A stretch of DNA of 64,000 nucleotides from Escherichia phage CMS-2020a: the sequence record CP053388.1. One strand, written 5' to 3'. A program made the position numbers and the translations under genes. This document shows positions 1-60,293 of the stretch, one piece after another (positions within the stretch are counted from its first letter, which is position 1; the number at the start of each line of letters is the position of its first letter). A model generated the notes under the pieces. That model saw only the letters and a program-made list of their open reading frames with translations, did no database searches and was not told the DNA's origin.

Positions 1-104
1 TGTGAAAAAGGATTTGGCGTTCGGTTTCTTCAGTCATTACATCATTATTGCTGATATAGATAGGCTCAGCCCCATCGCAGAACAACACGCTGGCTGTTTG
101 TGGT

Positions 105-356
105 TTAATGACGCACCCACTTATCATACAACTCACGATGAACGGCAGAAGCATCTTTCTGACGTATTTTACTGCTCGTCTCATTCACCACTTTCACTGT
201 GTTTTGAAGTCGTTTTCTGTCTTCCTGTTTTGCCTTCTCTTCCATTGCTCGTCGCGCCGCATTCCCGCCCATCGTGTAAGCGCCGACAAGAACGAAAAGA
301 ACGGCAGCCAGCGTAATCAAAGCAACTTTTAGCTTTGTCATCAGGCTGCCTAGCAT
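105..356 (-). CDS. hypothetical membrane protein (N-terminal TM helix, charged C-terminus; possible spanin-like lysis component)
   Basis: 83-aa ORF with hydrophobic segment VALITLAAVLFVLVGAY; last gene of the late operon. Confidence 0.35.
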   Translation of the reverse strand: MLGSLMTKLKVALITLAAVLFVLVGAYTMGGNAARRAMEEKAKQEDRKRLQNTVKVVNETSSKIRQKDASAVHRELYDKWVRH

Positions 357-20530: not shown

Positions 20531-20914
20531 TTAATTCAATAAATAGCCAGCAAATTCAACAGGAATGCCTGCTTCTATTAATGCCCCATCATTTTTGGGA
20601 TAAATGATTGGCATCGCCATCGGTCGTACAAGTCGAAAATAAACACCACCAGATTCCGTTTCCTCTACTGGAAACATCTCAATGATTTTATTGGCTTTCT
20701 CAACCGTCGTAGTAATTGACGAACCACGCACAATGATTGTGAATGATTCGTGATAAAAGCCCTGTAGCTCATGATCGATGCTGATACCGGTATTTGGGTT
20801 AATAAGCAGGACGCCAGATTTCACATTGGCAGGCAAGTAGTGACAGAAAATGTCAGTCCCGACCGTGCCAATCTTTGCCTTCTGCATCAAACTTGCAAAC
20901 GCTTCAATAAACAC
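20531..20914 (-). CDS. tail completion / terminator-like protein (start uncertain)
   Basis: ORF between neck genes and major tail gene; candidate GTG start with AGAGG RBS. Confidence 0.4.
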   Translation of the reverse strand: MFIEAFASLMQKAKIGTVGTDIFCHYLPANVKSGVLLINPNTGISIDHELQGFYHESFTIIVRGSSITTTVEKANKIIEMFPVEETESGGVYFRLVRPMAMPIIYPKNDGALIEAGIPVEFAGYLLN

Positions 20915-27505: not shown

Positions 27506-27528
27506 TAGATAACTACTTACCTATCGAG
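27506..27528. promoter_or_regulatory. motif B palindrome
   Basis: tagataactacttacctatcgag between terL and portal genes. Confidence 0.5.
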
Positions 27529-28777
27529 AACCACCAAGAATAACACGGTTTTTGACTGGATACCTACGATGTACTGGATAGCCCAATGCGTCTGCACTAT
27601 GCTCAATGCCACCTGTCTTATCCATATCTCGTGTTCCAGGCTTGTAGATGACTTTTTCCAGTGAATCAATCAAATGCTTGCACTTCGGATCGATATACAG
27701 CCGGATATCTCCAGATGCGGACATCAGCATTCGGTTAACAGCATTAACACGATCCGCAATTGGCGGGTGCTTTTTCGAATAATCGACACGTAAGAATCCC
27801 TTCTCTTTGAATATGTCTACGTCAGACTCCCCACGAGCATGTTGGCGATAAGCACCTGCCGGATCTGGAAATACCGTTACCTGTGATTTCCAGCGCCAGA
27901 AGCGTCTCTCAAGCTCATCACAAACTTCTGCCGTGTTAGAGGAAAAGAGCACCAATTCATCAATTGCCCATAGCTCACCATTTGGCTGAGGTTGCAAAAT
28001 TACTGAAGACATCGGGTCAATGTTGAAGTCCTGCCCTACCCATATAGGCAACCGAGGGTTGAACTGAAGCGGTTTTACATGCACGTTACGATCGAACGGG
28101 TAGTAAACGCGCCCGGACATGTTCTCAAAGCTGGCCAGGTACTCCTGAGCGAACGATTTGGGGTCCATATCGTTCTTAGCAGCTTCAATTTCCGCCGTAG
28201 GTACAAACGGAGAATCGGCAGTTACAAACTGCCAGCTCTTCCACTGTCCCTTTCTTTGCAGCTCTACGTTCTGGCCTATCGTCCACAGTTTGTGAAATTC
28301 CGAGAAGCCTTTTGGCGTACCAATGATCAGTGCACCGCCGCGTGTCGATGAAAGAGTAGGTCGTAACACCTTGTACCAGGTGTCAGCCTTCATATCCTGA
28401 AATTCATCAAGCACTACAAAATGCAACGCTACGCCGCGCAGAGTGTCAGGCTTATCAGCACCTTTGAGGGCGATCTCCGAACCGTTCTTCAACACGATTG
28501 TCATCGTGGTGTCGTTCTTTTTCCTAACCCACTTACGAGGCAGAACTTCCTGTAGATCGTCCCACAAAATCTGGCGAGCCATCTGGTAAGTAGGAGCGAC
28601 ATACCAGACCCTTTGCTTTTTTTCCTTTGCCGCCGCACGAATAATAGTGGAGATCGACAACCGGGATTTTCCCCAGCGTCGACCAGCACAAACAACTTTA
28701 AATCGATGCGGAGACTGGAAGACTTTCATCTGTCCAGAATGCAGTTGCACAAGACTGAGCGAGGACGGGATTGCCAT
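27521..28777 (-). CDS. terminase large subunit
   Basis: Walker A-like CAGRRWGKS, Walker B VVLDEF, C-terminal nuclease-type Asp motifs (DFNIDP, DPAG). Confidence 0.85.
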   Translation of the reverse strand: MAIPSSLSLVQLHSGQMKVFQSPHRFKVVCAGRRWGKSRLSISTIIRAAAKEKKQRVWYVAPTYQMARQILWDDLQEVLPRKWVRKKNDTTMTIVLKNGSEIALKGADKPDTLRGVALHFVVLDEFQDMKADTWYKVLRPTLSSTRGGALIIGTPKGFSEFHKLWTIGQNVELQRKGQWKSWQFVTADSPFVPTAEIEAAKNDMDPKSFAQEYLASFENMSGRVYYPFDRNVHVKPLQFNPRLPIWVGQDFNIDPMSSVILQPQPNGELWAIDELVLFSSNTAEVCDELERRFWRWKSQVTVFPDPAGAYRQHARGESDVDIFKEKGFLRVDYSKKHPPIADRVNAVNRMLMSASGDIRLYIDPKCKHLIDSLEKVIYKPGTRDMDKTGGIEHSADALGYPVHRRYPVKNRVILGGSR

Positions 28778-29409
28778 TATTCGTCCTCCCCTTCACTTCC
28801 ATCATCTGTCGCATCAAATTCGCTTAGAGCTTCTTCTTCCAACGTCTCAAGCAATTCGTCATCGATGATTTCAGGCTCGTCGTCTTCCTGACGTAATTTC
28901 GCCACCTGGGAAGGCGTAAGCTCACCAAATACCAGGTTCGGAATTTCTTCCTCGTCATTTTCCGCATGATCCATGCCCAATGCTTTGGACGAAACTTCAA
29001 AGCATTTTGCAAGGGTATTACTGGCTCTCTGTAAGCTCTTGAGAGAATCCTCAATCGCCCCTAAAGGCTTACCCTCACGTTTGGCCGTAGTGACTTCGAC
29101 CATCACCATCTGCCCCAACGCATACGCCCAGCCGTCATAACGTGTACGACGTTCTTCTATCTTTTCCGCACGGGCTTTAGCGCGAAGCTCTGCGTCAGAT
29201 TTAAGAGACTCACGAACCATCTTCCCAACAGAGTCCGCGCCTTTCTCTAATCCTCGCTTTTTGAAATGTCTGGAGAGTGTTTCACGACGAATGCCGTACT
29301 CTTCCTCCAGCTTTGAGAGTGTATATTCGCCTGACGTCCATTTGGCTTCAGCTTCGGCCCACTCCGCTGGTGTCAGGCGAGTTTTTACCTCGTCTTTTTC
29401 GACCGTCAT
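28777..29409 (-). CDS. terminase small subunit (putative, HTH plus acidic tail)
   Basis: N-terminal HTH-like region, acidic C-terminus, immediately upstream of terL. Confidence 0.6.
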   Translation of the reverse strand: MTVEKDEVKTRLTPAEWAEAEAKWTSGEYTLSKLEEEYGIRRETLSRHFKKRGLEKGADSVGKMVRESLKSDAELRAKARAEKIEERRTRYDGWAYALGQMVMVEVTTAKREGKPLGAIEDSLKSLQRASNTLAKCFEVSSKALGMDHAENDEEEIPNLVFGELTPSQVAKLRQEDDEPEIIDDELLETLEEEALSEFDATDDGSEGEDE

Positions 29410-29418
29410 AGATCCCTC

Positions 29419-29450
29419 TAAAACACACAGAGCGCGTCCATGCGCTCTAA
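29419..29450 (-). terminator. hairpin plus U-tract in terS leader (candidate regulated terminator)
   Basis: Minus strand reads AGAGCGCATGGACGCGCTCT followed by GTGTGTTTT, then GAGGG RBS and terS ATG. Confidence 0.5.
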
Positions 29451-29492
29451 AACAACTTGTTTACTGCATCTGCTAACCAACTTGTTTTCTGG
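29448..29492. promoter_or_regulatory. two copies of motif A (AAACAAnTTGTTT palindrome) upstream of terS
   Basis: aaaacaacttgtttac and aaccaacttgttttctgg. Confidence 0.55.
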
Positions 29493-29525
29493 GGTGTTTA
29501 ATTAGGTCTGGCATGTCTTACGAAG

Positions 29526-29580
29526 CCTGCTTCCGTATATATTTAATAAGTTACTTATTATTTATATATACAGAAGCAGG
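29526..29580. repeat. 55-bp near-palindrome, copy 1
   Basis: cctgcttccgtatatat ... atatatacagaagcagg arms with central AATAAGTtACTTATT palindrome; copy 2 at 59621-59677. Confidence 0.8.
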
Positions 29581-29604
29581 TCTTTAAATAAGCTCCCAGA
29601 CCGA

Positions 29605-29871
29605 TTACATCACCAGTAACTTCGCTTTGGCTCGACCTAAAGTAGTTAACCCAAGAGTTCGGCGGTGATAGCGATTGTCACTGCGTTGGCGCGTATGCCC
29701 TTTCTCCACCAGCCCCTTTTTTATCAGAGCGCGAATTGAGAACTGGATACTTTGCTTGGTTGTCTTGTACGGCAAAACTTCAAGCAATTCGTCCAGGTCA
29801 AGTAGATGACCTCGCTCATAACCGAGATTGAGCGTTTTGATGATGTCCTTTTGTTTATCGGTTAACGTCAT
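29605..29871 (-). CDS. small winged-helix DNA-binding protein (putative regulator)
   Basis: 88 aa; helix-turn-helix-like segment and basic C-terminus. Confidence 0.45.
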   Translation of the reverse strand: MTLTDKQKDIIKTLNLGYERGHLLDLDELLEVLPYKTTKQSIQFSIRALIKKGLVEKGHTRQRSDNRYHRRTLGLTTLGRAKAKLLVM

Positions 29872-29880
29872 GGCAAATCC

Positions 29881-30780
29881 TTATGCCGGTAAAGCAATTT
29901 CTAACGGTTTATCCAAAGGTTGTTTGTCGAATGCCAGCAGTGGCAGCGTGTCAGGCAGTCGACGACCAAAGTCAGGGTTTCGATACACACCATACAACGG
30001 AGACGTAAAGCTCAGGTTGTGAATGTCCTTGAGCAGCTTCACAATGCTGGCCTCGTCCACCAGACTGTCGGCAATGTCCTGAATCGTCGTGCCACGATTC
30101 CGCCCAGCTTTTGCCAGGGAACTGTTCTTGTGGTAGTCCGCCACCAGATCACGCAGTGCACGGCGACGACGAGACTCGCTCATAGCGAACAACTCTTTGA
30201 CGATCGCCTCGTTATCACCCGGGTCGGAGCGGAAATGGCGCTGGAACACACGCAGTGCACTTTCATAGCTCTTCGGTCGCTCAGGGCGGATGAACTTAAA
30301 CCCTGCTTTCATGGCGAAGGGATTGTATTTGCTCATCGATGACTGGATCTCAATGATTGGCCGGTCATGCATCCTGCTAACCAGGTTAATCATTCGATAA
30401 GAGACGCCTACGCCACGGTACTGAGTATCCACAACTGAGCGGCTGATCACCGCAAAGTTGTTATTCACGTACCGGCCCCAGTACTGGTTAGCCACGGTGG
30501 TATTGGTAGTTGGTTTCAACTTAGGAAACATGCGATGGCGAGGTGCCAGCAGAAGTTTCGGGTAAGCCATAACCACGACGCCCACCAGACGGTCATCCAG
30601 TTCGCAGCGATAGTATGTTGGCGCGAAAGGTTTGCCGTCTGTTTTGTAGTGAAGCGATTTAAGAGCGTGCCAGTCCTCTACAGTTCCCTTTGTGACAGTC
30701 ATTCGCTCCAGAAAGTCCAGATGACGCGGAAACTCTTCAGGGCGGTAGCGTTTGATGATGATATCTGCCATCTCGATCAC
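29881..30780 (-). CDS. GNAT-like acetyltransferase-fold protein (function unknown)
   Basis: VVDTQYRGVGVSYRMINL resembles the GNAT acetyl-CoA-binding motif. Confidence 0.45.
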   Translation of the reverse strand: MIEMADIIIKRYRPEEFPRHLDFLERMTVTKGTVEDWHALKSLHYKTDGKPFAPTYYRCELDDRLVGVVVMAYPKLLLAPRHRMFPKLKPTTNTTVANQYWGRYVNNNFAVISRSVVDTQYRGVGVSYRMINLVSRMHDRPIIEIQSSMSKYNPFAMKAGFKFIRPERPKSYESALRVFQRHFRSDPGDNEAIVKELFAMSESRRRRALRDLVADYHKNSSLAKAGRNRGTTIQDIADSLVDEASIVKLLKDIHNLSFTSPLYGVYRNPDFGRRLPDTLPLLAFDKQPLDKPLEIALPA

Positions 30781-31031
30781 CTGCGCTCGATATTGGCATT
30801 GATGAAATCCAGGCGAAGAGACTCCATCGCCCCTACCATGACATACGGGCGCCCGCCGTTATGCCAGCAATCAAGAACACTGCCGTCGTTGTTGATCATC
30901 AACAGCGCCAGGCTCTGGCTTTTTCCTTCTCTGGCGTGCTGAAGTGCTTCTTCCAGCAGGCGGATGACTTCCACGTTGTTGTTATCAGTCTCTTTCGATG
31001 GCTTCAGCTCTACGATCTTCAAATCAGGCAT
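30777..31031 (-). CDS. hypothetical protein
   Basis: 84-aa ORF translationally coupled to flanking genes. Confidence 0.4.
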   Translation of the reverse strand: MPDLKIVELKPSKETDNNNVEVIRLLEEALQHAREGKSQSLALLMINNDGSVLDCWHNGGRPYVMVGAMESLRLDFINANIERR

Positions 31032-31662
31032 ATTCCACCTTCACGCGTTCTTTGTAGTGCTTGGTGATCTGCATATCCGGGCGCAGCGCGTTCTTCAGGT
31101 CTTCGTGAGTCGTCGCCACCATTACCGTCGCACCAACCTTTCGAGCGGCACGCTGGAGGTTAGATGCCACAACCTGAGCGGTTACACGGTCGAGAACAGC
31201 GCCGAACTCGTCAGCAGCCCACACTTTAGCGCCTGACTCAATCAGTTTGGCAATCTTGAGACGATATTTCTGACCGTCTGACATTTCAGAAGGCTTGCGA
31301 ACAAACAGATATGCATCGTTCAGACCAGCCATAGATAACAACCCAAGCGCATCACTGGTAGTTTTGCCCAGTTGGTCAATGACGTTAACCTCATTATCGA
31401 AGGTAAAATCATCGATGGAGGCCACAGATAGCCCTTCATCCTTCATCTGGTGTTGCAGCTCGCGCAGCACAACGGATTTGCCGGAACCGGATTGGCCGGT
31501 AATGTACACCACATCGCCCTGCTTCACTTCCAGCTCCAGATTGTCGTAAAGCGTCCACTCTTTTTCGTCCAGGCCAAGCCCGAACGACTCAGCGATTTCC
31601 AACGTGCGCGTGGTTTTATTTACGCGTGTCTGAAACGATACGTTGATGATGTATTTGCTCAT
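31024..31662 (-). CDS. stand-alone ABC-type ATPase
   Basis: Walker A GQSGSGKS, signature-like MSDGQKYRL, Walker B VWAADE, H-loop TTHE. Confidence 0.7.
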   Translation of the reverse strand: MSKYIINVSFQTRVNKTTRTLEIAESFGLGLDEKEWTLYDNLELEVKQGDVVYITGQSGSGKSVVLRELQHQMKDEGLSVASIDDFTFDNEVNVIDQLGKTTSDALGLLSMAGLNDAYLFVRKPSEMSDGQKYRLKIAKLIESGAKVWAADEFGAVLDRVTAQVVASNLQRAARKVGATVMVATTHEDLKNALRPDMQITKHYKERVKVEYA

Positions 31663-32360
31663 GCAGCCATCTCCCCGGAAGAGATCTTCTCCGCATATGC
31701 CACAAATGCGTCTACCCCGCTTTCTCCCGTCATTTCTTCCATGTGGGCAAGCAAATCACCAACAACAATGGCAGAGCCAGCAGGGAGCGTTTTAAAGCCC
31801 AATACGTCGACAACACGTACTTCTTCCGCTGCAACTTCACGACTGATCTCGGTGTGTTCATCCTTCTGTCGTTTAGTTTCTTCGCCAAGATCGATAACTA
31901 GCGAGTCGGTGTCCATTTCTTCTGTCATACTGCCAACGAGAACATTCAACTCACGCTCTTCAAAGCCGAAAACCTCGATATCGTCCAGAACAAGCGACTC
32001 AAGCTCTTTCTGTAGCTTAATTGCATCGTAATCAATGCTGGCAAGTCGGTTATCTTCAAGGCGCTTCGCACGAACCTCGTCATCACTGAGATCATCGCGA
32101 ACAATAACCGGTACGCGCTCAAGTCCAGCAAAAATTGCAGCCTCACGGCGGCCGTGGCCAGTAATAATTACGTCGTTCTTATCGACCGTAATTGGCTGGT
32201 CAAATCCGCGCTTTTTAATGGCTGCGGCTAGATCTCGGATCTGCTGTTCATCATGCTTTTTGGCATTCATCTCATAGGGAATAAGATCTGCCGGGTCGCG
32301 ATATACGATTTCAAACTTTTTGGTCATTACATACGCTCCTTGTAGTAGTCGACCAGCCAT
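31659..32360 (-). CDS. ParB-like nuclease-domain protein
   Basis: ITGHGRREAAIFAG ParB/Srx-type motif. Confidence 0.65.
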   Translation of the reverse strand: MAGRLLQGAYVMTKKFEIVYRDPADLIPYEMNAKKHDEQQIRDLAAAIKKRGFDQPITVDKNDVIITGHGRREAAIFAGLERVPVIVRDDLSDDEVRAKRLEDNRLASIDYDAIKLQKELESLVLDDIEVFGFEERELNVLVGSMTEEMDTDSLVIDLGEETKRQKDEHTEISREVAAEEVRVVDVLGFKTLPAGSAIVVGDLLAHMEEMTGESGVDAFVAYAEKISSGEMAA

Positions 32361-33025
32361 ACCAGAGCCTCACCAGCGTTCTCCATTTCATTACCGGTGT
32401 TAATAGCCTGCTCTTTGATGATGTTTTTTATGGTTTCTGCAACACGATCTGACGCATCGAAAGTTACTTTGAAGCGCATGGTCTGATGTTCCGCACCCAC
32501 ACGTTCGGTTTTCTCTCGTTTGTCGGTATCGACAGGCTCATCACTACCACGAGACAACGCCTCCAGTGCTTCAAGGTCGATTGCCGCCTCTTTTGCTAAA
32601 ACCATCGAGATTTCGTCGTCATACGGGGCGATTTCAGACAGTTGATAGTCAAGTTCTGACTGAATTTCTTCAATGAAGCGTTGCAATGCGATTTGGTCGT
32701 CTTCACCGTATCGCTCGTTGTCCACCAGTGACATCTGTTTAGCTACGACATCGCTAATTTTGCCCACAGAAAGCACCGGAACCGTTGAAATTCCTTGCTC
32801 AATAGCAGCACGCCAGCGATGTTCGCCGCCGAGGATTTCAAAAAATCCATCTTCAAGTTCACGAGCCAAAATTGGCTTAAAAAAGCCCAATTTTTCGATA
32901 GAACCTTTCAGTTTTTCAAAATTCTGCGCACCAACCGAATTGGTGTTCCAGGTATTCGGGCGAAGGTTGGCAACATCAACCTGCAAAATCGTGATTTTTA
33001 CATCCATTTTATTGCTACAATCCAC
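32327..33025 (-). CDS. ParB-like nuclease-domain protein (second paralogue)
   Basis: ILGGEHRWRAAIEQG ParB/Srx-type motif. Confidence 0.65.
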   Translation of the reverse strand: MDCSNKMDVKITILQVDVANLRPNTWNTNSVGAQNFEKLKGSIEKLGFFKPILARELEDGFFEILGGEHRWRAAIEQGISTVPVLSVGKISDVVAKQMSLVDNERYGEDDQIALQRFIEEIQSELDYQLSEIAPYDDEISMVLAKEAAIDLEALEALSRGSDEPVDTDKREKTERVGAEHQTMRFKVTFDASDRVAETIKNIIKEQAINTGNEMENAGEALVWLVDYYKERM

Positions 33026-38800: not shown

Positions 38801-38821
38801 GATTAATTCCTTATCGTAAAT

Positions 38822-55882: not shown

Positions 55883-56452
55883 TCAATTAGAGCTTTGAAA
55901 GACTTTGTGTGGTTGTGTTGCGAGGTTATGTCGATGGCTTAACTCACGCATCATGTCTTCAAGCCGACTCTTTGTGTCGTCGAGTTGGTCGGCCATTGCT
56001 CCCAAAAGCTGACGAACGGCCATCGGATCATCGCTGTTTAGTGATGGCATTTTATAACCCGCCTGAGAAGACATAAGATTGAACGCAGACATCAACATCG
56101 TTAGAGAGGATTTAAGCCCAGCAATTTCACGATCTTTGCTGGCAATAATCGCCTCACTCTTGTTAGTGTCATCAGTTCGTTGAGTCTCGCTCACCATATC
56201 CAAAGTCGCCTGCAACTTATCAGCGCGCTCTTTTTCAGCAAGATAATGAACACCGAAATGATGTGCTAAAGCTACAACCTGAGTTGGCTCTTCAAAGGTG
56301 GACTCAAAATTAAGTGCTGTAACCACTCTCTCAAATATGGAAACGTCTTCTATTCCTCGAAGAATGGCTAACATTTTGACCAGTTCATTAGCATCCATTT
56401 CTTCGAATAAGGCGTTTTGTTCATCAGCTATCGCTTTGCATTTCTTGCACAT
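55883..56452 (-). CDS. hypothetical coiled-coil protein
   Basis: 189-aa ORF; motif A upstream. Confidence 0.5.
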   Translation of the reverse strand: MCKKCKAIADEQNALFEEMDANELVKMLAILRGIEDVSIFERVVTALNFESTFEEPTQVVALAHHFGVHYLAEKERADKLQATLDMVSETQRTDDTNKSEAIIASKDREIAGLKSSLTMLMSAFNLMSSQAGYKMPSLNSDDPMAVRQLLGAMADQLDDTKSRLEDMMRELSHRHNLATQPHKVFQSSN

Positions 56453-59283: not shown

Positions 59284-59538
59284 TCATTGTGATTGATTAT
59301 TTTCTCTACCATGTAGTTGAACATTCAAGGCAAACACCTCATTGATCAACTCACCTAAAAGCTGTTCAACAAGTTCGCGATGCTCGCCAAGATGCAAGCA
59401 CTTAATTGCCCATTCGTACAAGTTGAAAGCCTGCTCACGATCTTTCATCATTTCACGAGCCTGGGCCAGAAAATCGCTCTCTACGAGCGCAACGACATTA
59501 GTCGGGTATGACATGTTGGTTTCCTTAAAGTGGTTCAT
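59284..59538 (-). CDS. hypothetical protein
   Basis: 84-aa ORF. Confidence 0.45.
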   Translation of the reverse strand: MNHFKETNMSYPTNVVALVESDFLAQAREMMKDREQAFNLYEWAIKCLHLGEHRELVEQLLGELINEVFALNVQLHGRENNQSQ

Positions 59539-59620
59539 AAAATCGATTTTAAAGCGTCTGGGAAGGGGTTCTAGTGGATTCTGTAGTGATGTTCAGGTCT
59601 GGAGTCTCTGATACAAAGCT

Positions 59621-59677
59621 GCCTGCTTCCGTATATTAATAATTAATATGTAGTTATTTATATATACAGAAGCAGGC
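59621..59677. repeat. 55-bp near-palindrome, copy 2
   Basis: gcctgcttccgtatat ... atatacagaagcaggc. Confidence 0.8.
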
Positions 59678-59699
59678 TAATTACAGACGCCAGAACAAA

Positions 59700-60293
59700 C
59701 TAAGCAGCCTTCTTTGATGGTCTTTTTTTCCTGATCACATTCGCAGGATCATACCCTCCCAGACTTTTCATGACGTCCAAAGGGATCTTGCTTATAGAGT
59801 GCCCAGCGTCCTGACAGAATCCTCGAAAAACAACGAGCATACTGCCACCTGGGTTGATGTTTACTTCTACCTGACCCAGATTTACGTCAGGCTCGACAAA
59901 CGCTACGCGGCCACCAGACAGAATAATCGTCTCATTCGCACACTCTGTTGCACGCTCATACCACTTTGTATCTAGGGATTGAGGAATTAGCATCACTGTT
60001 GTAACTCCACGAGCCTGCTCACGTATAGCCGCATCAATCCAGGGGGAGATTTTGGAGTAGGGTGGATTGAGGAAGGCAATTGTACCTGGCTGTCCCCATT
60101 CAGATTTCAAAGCATCACGCTCAACGCCTATGAAATTAGGCAGCTTTGCATTGTCCTTGTTGCAGGCAACGTCAACATCAAATGTCACTCCAAGATAACG
60201 TTGAATGGCAGAAAACAGCCAGTCAGGTGTTCTCCAGAGGTCACGAAGAGAGTTGTCGCGCTTTCGCTGTTTGATTTTTTCGGCTGCAATCAT
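59700..60293 (-). CDS. phage-type DNA N6-adenine methyltransferase (Dam family)
   Basis: WRTPDWLF, DVDVAC, FLNPPY motifs. Confidence 0.7.
   Translation of the reverse strand: MIAAEKIKQRKRDNSLRDLWRTPDWLFSAIQRYLGVTFDVDVACNKDNAKLPNFIGVERDALKSEWGQPGTIAFLNPPYSKISPWIDAAIREQARGVTTVMLIPQSLDTKWYERATECANETIILSGGRVAFVEPDVNLGQVEVNINPGGSMLVVFRGFCQDAGHSISKIPLDVMKSLGGYDPANVIRKKRPSKKAA

Follow-up and report, generated by a model that had tools for sequence, protein, structure and literature searches.

The DNA considered here is a 64,000-nucleotide window (the whole stretch analysed) of Escherichia phage CMS-2020a, sequence record CP053388.1. The window replicon is an SSU5-like phage-plasmid that is 98% identical to PhiR41_1 and has relatives in Salmonella (SSU5) and Klebsiella. 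Two copies of a near-palindrome of about 55 bp lie in the window, one (site 1) ahead of the gene for a TerS-like protein and the other (site 2) behind a Dam-type methyltransferase gene, and together with a third copy (site 3) outside the window they form a conserved boundary element of SSU5-like phage-plasmids that was previously undescribed. The cores and their outer repeats, in window coordinates, are as follows.

29526-29580, minus strand: core of site 1, a 55-bp near-palindrome with arms CCTGCTTCYGTATATAT and centre AATAAGT-N-ACTTATT, within the leader of the terS/late operon
59621-59677, minus strand: core of site 2, a 57-bp near-palindrome with arms as at site 1 and a different AT-rich centre
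29505-29511, no strand assigned: outer inverted-repeat arm GGTCTGG of site 1, pairing with 29596-29602
29596-29602, no strand assigned: outer inverted-repeat arm CCAGACC of site 1, pairing with 29505-29511
59596-59602, no strand assigned: outer repeat GGTCTGG of site 2, whose partner is the degenerate CCAGAAC at 59690-59696
59690-59696, no strand assigned: outer repeat CCAGAAC of site 2, one mismatch from CCAGACC

An earlier reading of the letters without database searches (the sequence-only reading) had reported the two copies, and both were recovered at the coordinates it gave. The form CCTGCTTC-N39-GAAGCAGG describes each of them (29526-29580 and 59622-59676), and the looser pattern CCTGCTTC-N30-60-GAAGCAGG matches the window twice, at these two sites, compared with no match in 100 dinucleotide shuffles. 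A search of the window for the arm with up to three mismatches retrieved the four half-sites of both copies and one chance match. The full sequences are aagCCTGCTTCCGTATATATTTAATAAGTTACTTATTATTTATATATACAGAAGCAGGtct at site 1 (29526-29580) and ctgCCTGCTTCCGTATATTAATAATTAATATGTAGTTATTTATATATACAGAAGCAGGcta at site 2 (59622-59676), the latter widened by one additional G/C pair to 59621-59677, which is the extent that had been proposed for the second copy. The arms, previously put at about 16 bp around an AT-rich core, measure 15-17 nt and include a single C/A mismatch on the plus strand that becomes a G·U pair on the transcribed minus strand. The AT-rich interior of site 1 holds a 7+7 palindrome of its own, AATAAGT-T-ACTTATT, and relatives carry the outer arm of site 1 in the form GGTCTGGGAG / CTCCCAGACC.

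Three orthologous junctions and their neighbours

The sequence-only reading counted two copies and proposed a search for others; both are real, but each genome holds a third, contrary to the first half of its refuting outcome, that the two would be the only ones. The complete CMS-2020a genome (109,272 bp) contains exactly three copies, at 30712, 61734 (site 1) and 93248 (site 2), spaced 31.0, 31.5 and 46.7 kb apart, and the third copy, site 3, lies about 1.5 kb past the left end of the window. Conservation of the element extends across genera. All three copies occur in SSU5, in Cyrano and in PhiR41_1, Klebsiella pJN2-26 has a site 3 that is present but diverged, and genomes of the E. coli type have one and the same core at sites 1 and 3. 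A scan of IMG/VR with a degenerate pattern gave at least 120 loci, which were classed to site by flank homology; most sequences were gathered by a pattern that fixed 12 arm positions and left the centre free. Among the matches listed, at least 59 loci belong to site 1, at least 44 to site 2 and at least 17 to site 3. Since every locus listed is one of the same three orthologous junctions, the element is restricted to three orthologous positions. A miniature inverted-repeat transposable element or other mobile element is ruled out by the absence of target-site duplications and by these strictly orthologous positions. The terS gene adjacent to site 1 matches 955 PLSDB plasmids. An Rfam scan returned no family at gathering threshold, with miRNA-hairpin noise of 18-24 bits against thresholds of at least 62 bits, and literature searches on SSU5, pHCM2 and the arm sequence found the element nowhere described.

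All genes neighbouring the three sites are co-directional on the minus strand, and both window copies follow the last gene of one unit and precede the first gene of the next, as had been read from the letters. The genes at sites 1 and 2 are listed below.

29605-29871, minus strand: 88-amino-acid gene (phrog_900), last gene of an operon encoding ParB/Srx proteins and an ABC-ATPase; the site 1 hairpin begins 24 nt past its stop
28777-29409, minus strand: TerS-like DNA-binding protein of 210 amino acids, first gene downstream of site 1, starting 117 nt beyond it and abutting TerL
27521-28777, minus strand: TerL, abutting terS, with portal and other structural genes beyond
59700-60293, minus strand: Dam-type adenine methyltransferase gene; the site 2 hairpin begins 23 nt past its stop
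59284-59538, minus strand: 84-amino-acid open reading frame (ORF; phrog_5343), first gene downstream of site 2, preceding the RNase H gene and an accessory/plasmid block

Site 3 comes after the end of the tail-fibre, lysis and cargo genes and before a hypothetical gene that is followed by DnaB helicase and primase. The three copies thus stand at the heads of the structural (site 1), accessory/plasmid (site 2) and replication (site 3) blocks.

The flanks of the sites differ in their stability. At sites 1 and 2 both flanks are conserved in every locus examined. At site 3, homology among relatives is lost no more than about 6 nt from the edge of the palindrome, where the right flank is one of five unrelated neighbours, depending on the relative. 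The palindrome stays attached to the downstream replication block despite these five swapped neighbours, and so behaves as a boundary element. To the right of site 3 lies a cargo hot spot, occupied in CMS-2020a and the window by a 567-amino-acid KAP-family P-loop NTPase (CMS-2020a 30767-32478), whose N-terminus is encoded by window positions 1-270.

Repeated, conserved intergenic stem-loop motifs at the edges of exchangeable blocks are also known from T4-type phages, whose PeSL (composite terminator/promoter cassettes) occur in large numbers in hyperplastic regions and include a sigma-70 early promoter that can be recognised (PMC2839356, PMC4122927). Of the three copies here, only site 3 falls at a mosaic junction. 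In contrast to PeSL, the present element occurs in only three copies, borders core modules and carries no sigma-70 promoter above chance: a scan of the coding strand for such promoters found none at sites 1 and 2 and one chance-level match at site 3. A role as recombination linkers has been proposed for PeSL, and the palindromes could likewise be short patches of homology for module exchange with a secondary role in transcription. The abrupt end of homology beside five different neighbours at site 3 is as expected of linkers, the identical cores of sites 1 and 3 within genomes are consistent with gene conversion, and the site at which an arm variant such as CCTGCGTCTG appears differs between lineages. 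However, the association with a mosaic junction is confined to site 3, with both flanks of sites 1 and 2 conserved throughout. That one junction could just as well be due to a cargo hot spot where the tail module ends. Moreover, recombination between three direct copies in one genome would delete blocks of 31-47 kb, so such repeats should be selected against unless otherwise functional. We consider linkers a very unlikely primary role.

Pairing and terminator-like features in the transcribed strand

Conservation of the core between lineages reaches 0.92 at site 1 and 0.83 at site 2, compared with 0.64-0.76 in the intergenic flanks, a difference to which collection itself contributes in the arms, because the search pattern fixed 12 arm positions. 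Where the arms do change, pairing tends to follow. The arms of Klebsiella site 2 read CTTTCG/CGAAAG with pairing kept, those of Klebsiella site 3 read CCTGTTTC/GAAACAGG while CCTGCTT is retained at sites 1 and 2 of the same genome, and the transcribed strand of CMS-2020a site 3 contains two U·G pairs. A relative with a 68% TerS match and Xenorhabdus hominickii have arms that are complementary yet specific to the lineage, CCGTTCTCCCA ... TGGGAGCACGG, separated by about 95 nt. In the transcribed orientation 92% of arm cells pair, compared with 26-57% in slid controls; double changes occur in four arm pairs, a count reached by only 7 of 500 shuffles; and RNAalifold returns a 15-bp consensus stem with compensatory changes in five pairs. 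Mismatches are wobble pairs on the transcribed strand in 13 cases versus 5 on the opposite strand. Compensation of this site-specific kind is better accounted for by selection on a hairpin than by altered specificity of a single protein.

Folding of the minus-strand RNA agrees with this picture. The 111-nt regions reach -48.4 kcal/mol at site 1 and -35.7 kcal/mol at site 2 (z = -9.0 and -5.4 against shuffles), and because the paired cores are bracketed by GGTCTGG...CCAGACC or CCAGAAC, these regions fold as long interrupted hairpins. The transcribed strand thereby contains a stable stem-loop with a GC-rich base, as in an intrinsic terminator. On the 3' side of the hairpin, as transcription runs, relatives have T-tracts at sites 2 and 3, such as CTTTTT, CTGTTTT, CTTTTCC and TCTTTT, with a mean of 5.1 T in 9 nt at site 2 and 4.8 at site 3 versus 3.2 and 3.6 in the opposite direction, and site 3 of Klebsiella pJN2-26 has T7 after the hairpin. 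Strong bidirectional terminators were among the functions first suggested for the palindromes. The T-tracts of the relatives support termination in one direction, whereas the bidirectional part of that suggestion is unsupported because neither window copy has a T-tract in the opposite direction.

We hypothesize, with a probability of roughly 0.42, that these paralogous hairpin elements terminate or insulate transcription at module borders and possibly protect or process mRNA ends. The selected feature would be the hairpin of the transcribed strand, with a stem of 15-17 bp, a GC-rich base and an AT-rich interior containing a small apical stem, and the outer 7-bp stem would be an optional part of it. 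RNA polymerase arriving from the upstream block would be stopped or attenuated at the hairpin, and each gene block could thereby be controlled separately, with the lytic modules silent during plasmid life. From copy number, position, conservation, pairing and T-tracts we infer the termination or insulation itself, perhaps with a phage factor, such as an antiterminator, as reader. The likeness to intrinsic terminators and to long intergenic phage hairpins lies in the GC-rich stem base, the position about 24 nt after a stop codon, the co-directional genes, the T-tracts at sites 2 and 3 of relatives and the pairing kept by compensatory changes. Unlike them, the present element spans 55 nt with a structured interior, lacks a T-tract at site 1, and has paralogues that are near-identical across genera.

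Several observations weigh against this hypothesis. First, site 1 has no T-tract, with 2.9 T in 9 nt (the sequence there is CTTCGTAAG), and the tract at the window's own site 2 is weak, merely CAGCTTTGT. Second, the interior of 21-25 nt is far longer than the 3-8 nt loop of a terminator, and a consensus terminator scan calls none of the three sites, missing all of them because of that interior. Third, some arms contain mismatches that are unpairable on either strand, for example pair 6 at Klebsiella site 1, and the covariation rests on few independent events among related sequences. Finally, simple terminators are not normally near-identical among paralogues and across genera, centre AAGTNACTT included, and such near-identity points to a sequence-specific reader or to gene conversion.

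On the hypothesis of transcription punctuation, site 1 would be one part of a longer and more complex terS leader, which also contains the following features.

29428-29449, minus strand: canonical intrinsic-terminator hairpin with an 8-bp GC-rich stem and TGTGTTTT, between site 1 and the terS ribosome-binding site
29450-29487, no strand assigned: two operator-like palindromes AAACAA-N-TTGTTT, perfect at 29450-29462 and with one mismatch at 29475-29487

The terminator, separate from site 1 and about 70 nt beyond it, ends about 10 nt before the ribosome-binding site and is kept in Salmonella, Klebsiella and Yersinia relatives. Since no room for a promoter is left after it, the late operon appears dependent on read-through or antitermination. 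The motif AAACAA-N-TTGTTT looks like the operator of a phage regulator. Its other copies in the window lie at 38821, 39585, 40488, 40972, 43606, 43657, 51932, 56471 and 57200, for window totals of six perfect and five one-mismatch copies; CMS-2020a as a whole has nine perfect copies and K. oxytoca pCAV1099-111 has 12.

Promoters were also considered at the palindromes and rejected. The Lpa-dependent late promoter of P1 consists of a -22 box AAGTNACTT, N4 and TAnnAT (NC_005856 annotation). The box matches exactly at the centre of site 1 (29548-29556) and of site 3 and is absent from site 2. However, no TAnnAT stands 4 nt downstream of it at site 1 or 3, where the hexamers are AATATA and TTTATA, the box is not over-represented (3 found versus 2.4 expected), and a tblastn search with the first 103 amino acids of P1 Lpa against the CMS, pCAV and Acinetobacter genomes, a test of low sensitivity, gave a best E value of 0.49. 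A P1-type late promoter is therefore rejected on -10 spacing, copy number and the Lpa search. A T7-like promoter is suggested by the terS-proximal arm of Xenorhabdus and Morganella (TATGGGAGCA), which resembles the 3' end of T7/SP6 promoters, and fails because no single-subunit RNA polymerase was found among the large ORFs scanned. Those scanned in CMS-2020a outside the window encode Pol III alpha, CobT, SASA esterase, NrdA, SbcC and the KAP NTPase. A T4-type late promoter motif, TATAAATA, occurs on the transcribed strand of E. coli-type cores; Klebsiella site 1 lacks it and other lineages have it at varying distance, and this candidate was likewise rejected.

Distant relatives and the case for a dedicated protein

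In more distant lineages the palindrome itself decays. It is degraded in K. oxytoca pCAV1099-111, whose TerS is 64% identical, and all three junctions there carry an arm-like motif, ATCCAGAGCAMGG, beside ordinary terminator hairpins, one of them with T8. Terminators and arm motif at the same junctions make termination-type punctuation, as far as can be read from sequence, the conserved theme at the three borders. The pCAV1099-111 junctions (20690-20760, 56290-56420 and 108520-108580) also share a 45-nt direct repeat, CCCCTTAATTAAAAGATTTTAAAAAGAGCTTTAAATACTATC, ending in YRGAGCMAGG, and at its site 3 both arm types occur in reversed order around the ordinary terminator. Xenorhabdus has CTTTTA/TATTTT after the terS-proximal arm, and the arm spacing grows there from 25 nt to about 95 nt. 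The arm motif is lineage-specific yet common to all three junctions within a lineage, being GGAAGCAGG in SSU5, E. coli and Klebsiella and CCAGAGCAMGG in pCAV1099-111.

The centre of the element has relatives of its own. A small intergenic palindrome resembling it has about 12 intergenic copies in pCAV1099-111, and the apical part of the element may derive from a general intergenic motif of the phage supergroup. In A. baumannii pORAB01-1 (CP015484) such a palindrome, ATTATTAGTAAGCGCTTACTATAAT, occurs in at least 22 copies, most of them between genes, at about 20 nt from the preceding stop codon and 25-70 nt from the following start codon, and one copy lies just upstream of terS. The same replicon has about 14 iterons (TTTTAACGGTACAAAAAYTCCG) at the lysis/replication junction, the equivalent of site 3, beside a replication protein gene.

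These patterns also bear on a reading of the palindromes as DNA sites for a dedicated phage-encoded protein, whether a repressor-type roadblock, a loading site for a late activator or antiterminator, or a centromere-like site for ParB/Srx proteins. The whole 55 bp, centre included, is more conserved than its flanks; the arm motif is shared by the three junctions of each lineage; and the centre resembles the palindrome that is so frequent between genes in the Acinetobacter relatives and pCAV1099-111. The cores are bordered by short repeats (GGTCTGGGAG / CCAGAC), which number as many as four downstream of Klebsiella site 2, and conserved candidates for DNA binding are encoded beside site 1, namely the TerS-like protein, the 88-amino-acid protein and two ParB/Srx proteins 2 kb away. 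Against a single binding protein stand the compensatory changes that are particular to individual sites of the same genome (Klebsiella sites 2 and 3 versus site 1), the arm spacing that is not fixed in distant lineages, and the failure of the P1-type late promoter. Furthermore, the GTCTGG/CCAGAC hexamers show no clustering in excess of one or two per site in genomes of the E. coli type, where iteron-like clustering was not significant and was rejected. The two ParB_N/Srx proteins match through their N-terminal domain only and have acidic C-terminal halves without a recognised helix-turn-helix (HTH) domain; Cyrano encodes a MinD/ParA-like protein elsewhere. The binding sites for a dedicated protein that the sequence-only reading had offered are thus weakened by the site-specific compensation and favoured by the conserved 55-bp core, and on balance we regard this explanation as distinctly unlikely.

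For the centromere-like variant the closest comparison is the phage-plasmid N15, which has four dispersed palindromic centromeres (Sop system) built of short SopB sites of about 16 bp, some of them near late genes. Here too, a phage-plasmid has a few palindromic sites, three in number, scattered over the replicon, as expected of an N15-type dispersed centromere. The palindromes differ from those of N15 in being 55 bp long, in having no cognate HTH-type ParB identified, and in being conserved where the partition genes are variable.

The operon directly upstream of site 1 (29605-33025, minus strand) encodes the two ParB/Srx-domain proteins, an ABC-type ATPase, an 84-amino-acid ORF and proteins of 299 and 88 amino acids. 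For the 299-amino-acid protein (phrog_886), related records annotate the homologue as a fusion of an ABC-type ATPase with an acetyltransferase domain. The ParB/Srx, ABC-ATPase, terS-proximal order recurs in the relatives from K. oxytoca and A. baumannii, which have additional or other small genes, and a role of this operon in DNA modification or anti-defence is possible.

Possible packaging and replication roles and the meaning of the element

The position of site 1 recalls packaging sites, another function that had been proposed for the palindromes. On this explanation site 1 would be a cos or pac core, cut in its AT-rich centre by a terminase guided by the TerS-like protein, while sites 2 and 3 would be unused paralogues lacking the terS-proximal accessory repeats, or secondary pac sites of a headful packager. 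Site 1 lies 117 nt upstream of terS, and terS abuts terL, the terminase adjacency that is expected of a cos site. This is also the position of lambda cosN-cosB relative to Nu1. The dyad core with short flanking inverted repeats resembles terminase recognition sites, and extra repeats (AAACAAGTTGKTT twice) follow site 1 only. The AlphaFold2 model of the TerS-like protein (mean predicted local distance difference test score 74) has an N-terminal HTH and a long helical hairpin, a plausible TerS-like architecture, and a Foldseek search with this model found nothing significant (best E 0.96).

SSU5, which derives from virions, has a linear GenBank record whose two ends both lie within site 1, with ...ACTTATTA on one side of the break and AATATATAC on the other. 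Joining the ends of the record exactly reproduces the junction of circular relatives, with no base lost or duplicated. The break is 18 nt from one edge of the palindrome, and a symmetric cut on the other strand would leave a 19-nt AT-rich overhang. However, this record, which has no cos annotation, is the sole evidence on ends. Cyrano is plasmid pLF82 re-annotated, and its authors chose the same start in order to match SSU5; p4727 opens at the ATG of a gene; and a Logan contig (ERR3333567) starts exactly k-1 = 30 nt inside the palindrome, an assembly artefact of the three-copy repeat. These three were rejected as physical genome ends, being conventions or an artefact.

Further points count against packaging. 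A cos site is normally unique, and here there are three copies per genome, with the cores of sites 1 and 3 identical in the E. coli type. Packaging gives no reason for sites 2 and 3 to be kept at fixed junctions, the increase in arm spacing from 25 to about 95 nt in Xenorhabdus is hard to square with a fixed nicking geometry, and TerL is only 24-41% identical to terminases of phages with differing packaging modes. Compared with lambda cos (cosN dyad plus cosB) and the pac sites of P1 and SPP1, the likeness is a dyad core that directly precedes the gene for the small terminase subunit and is flanked by short repeats, and the difference is the three identical-core copies and the spacing that varies in distant relatives. 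A simple cos site is disfavoured by these same two features, although a headful packager may use several pac sites, or accessory repeats may tell the copies apart in the way of cosB. The packaging proposal thus survives for site 1 only, by virtue of its place beside terS and of the SSU5 record that opens there, and we judge it unlikely.

Replication offers a further explanation, in which the palindromes would be lytic origins (AT-rich unwinding with DnaB, primase and Pol III alpha) or hairpins/cruciforms cut by an SbcCD-like nuclease for recombination-dependent replication. An AT-rich centre of variable length between conserved inverted arms, in several dispersed copies, is as expected of such sites; site 3 is directly upstream of the replication block (hypothetical protein, DnaB, primase); the equivalent Acinetobacter junction has its iteron array beside a replication protein gene; and Pol III alpha and SbcC-like proteins are encoded in the genome. 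On the other hand, iterons and DnaA boxes are absent at the sites, sites 1 and 2 have no tie to replication genes, and the T-tracts and fixed distance from stop codons are left unexplained. The palindromes known to trigger SbcCD cleavage in E. coli are well above 55 bp in length, which counts against programmed cleavage. We give origins or cleavage sites very little credence. A telomere-resolution site like N15 telRL was rejected, as the plasmid and phage records are circular and no protelomerase was found among the scanned large CMS-2020a ORFs, all of them outside the window.

The competing explanations are not all mutually exclusive. One dyad might be read by the packaging and replication machinery alike, with a terminase cut at site 1 and a hairpin/cruciform, secondary pac site or SbcCD-like entry at the two other borders. 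We hold this combination to be highly doubtful; if true, one signal would serve a phage-plasmid for genome punctuation, replication and packaging together.

Whatever reads it, the element bears on a widespread group. SSU5-like phage-plasmids (the pHCM2, pMT1, pKpn and pLF82/Cyrano types) are very common and clinically relevant, and carry resistance and virulence cargo. The three-copy repeat accounts for the three fixed break points in short-read assemblies of these plasmids, and site 3 marks the junction where host-range and defence cargo is swapped. The three-site element provides a concrete handle on how these phage-plasmids silence their lytic modules and package their DNA.

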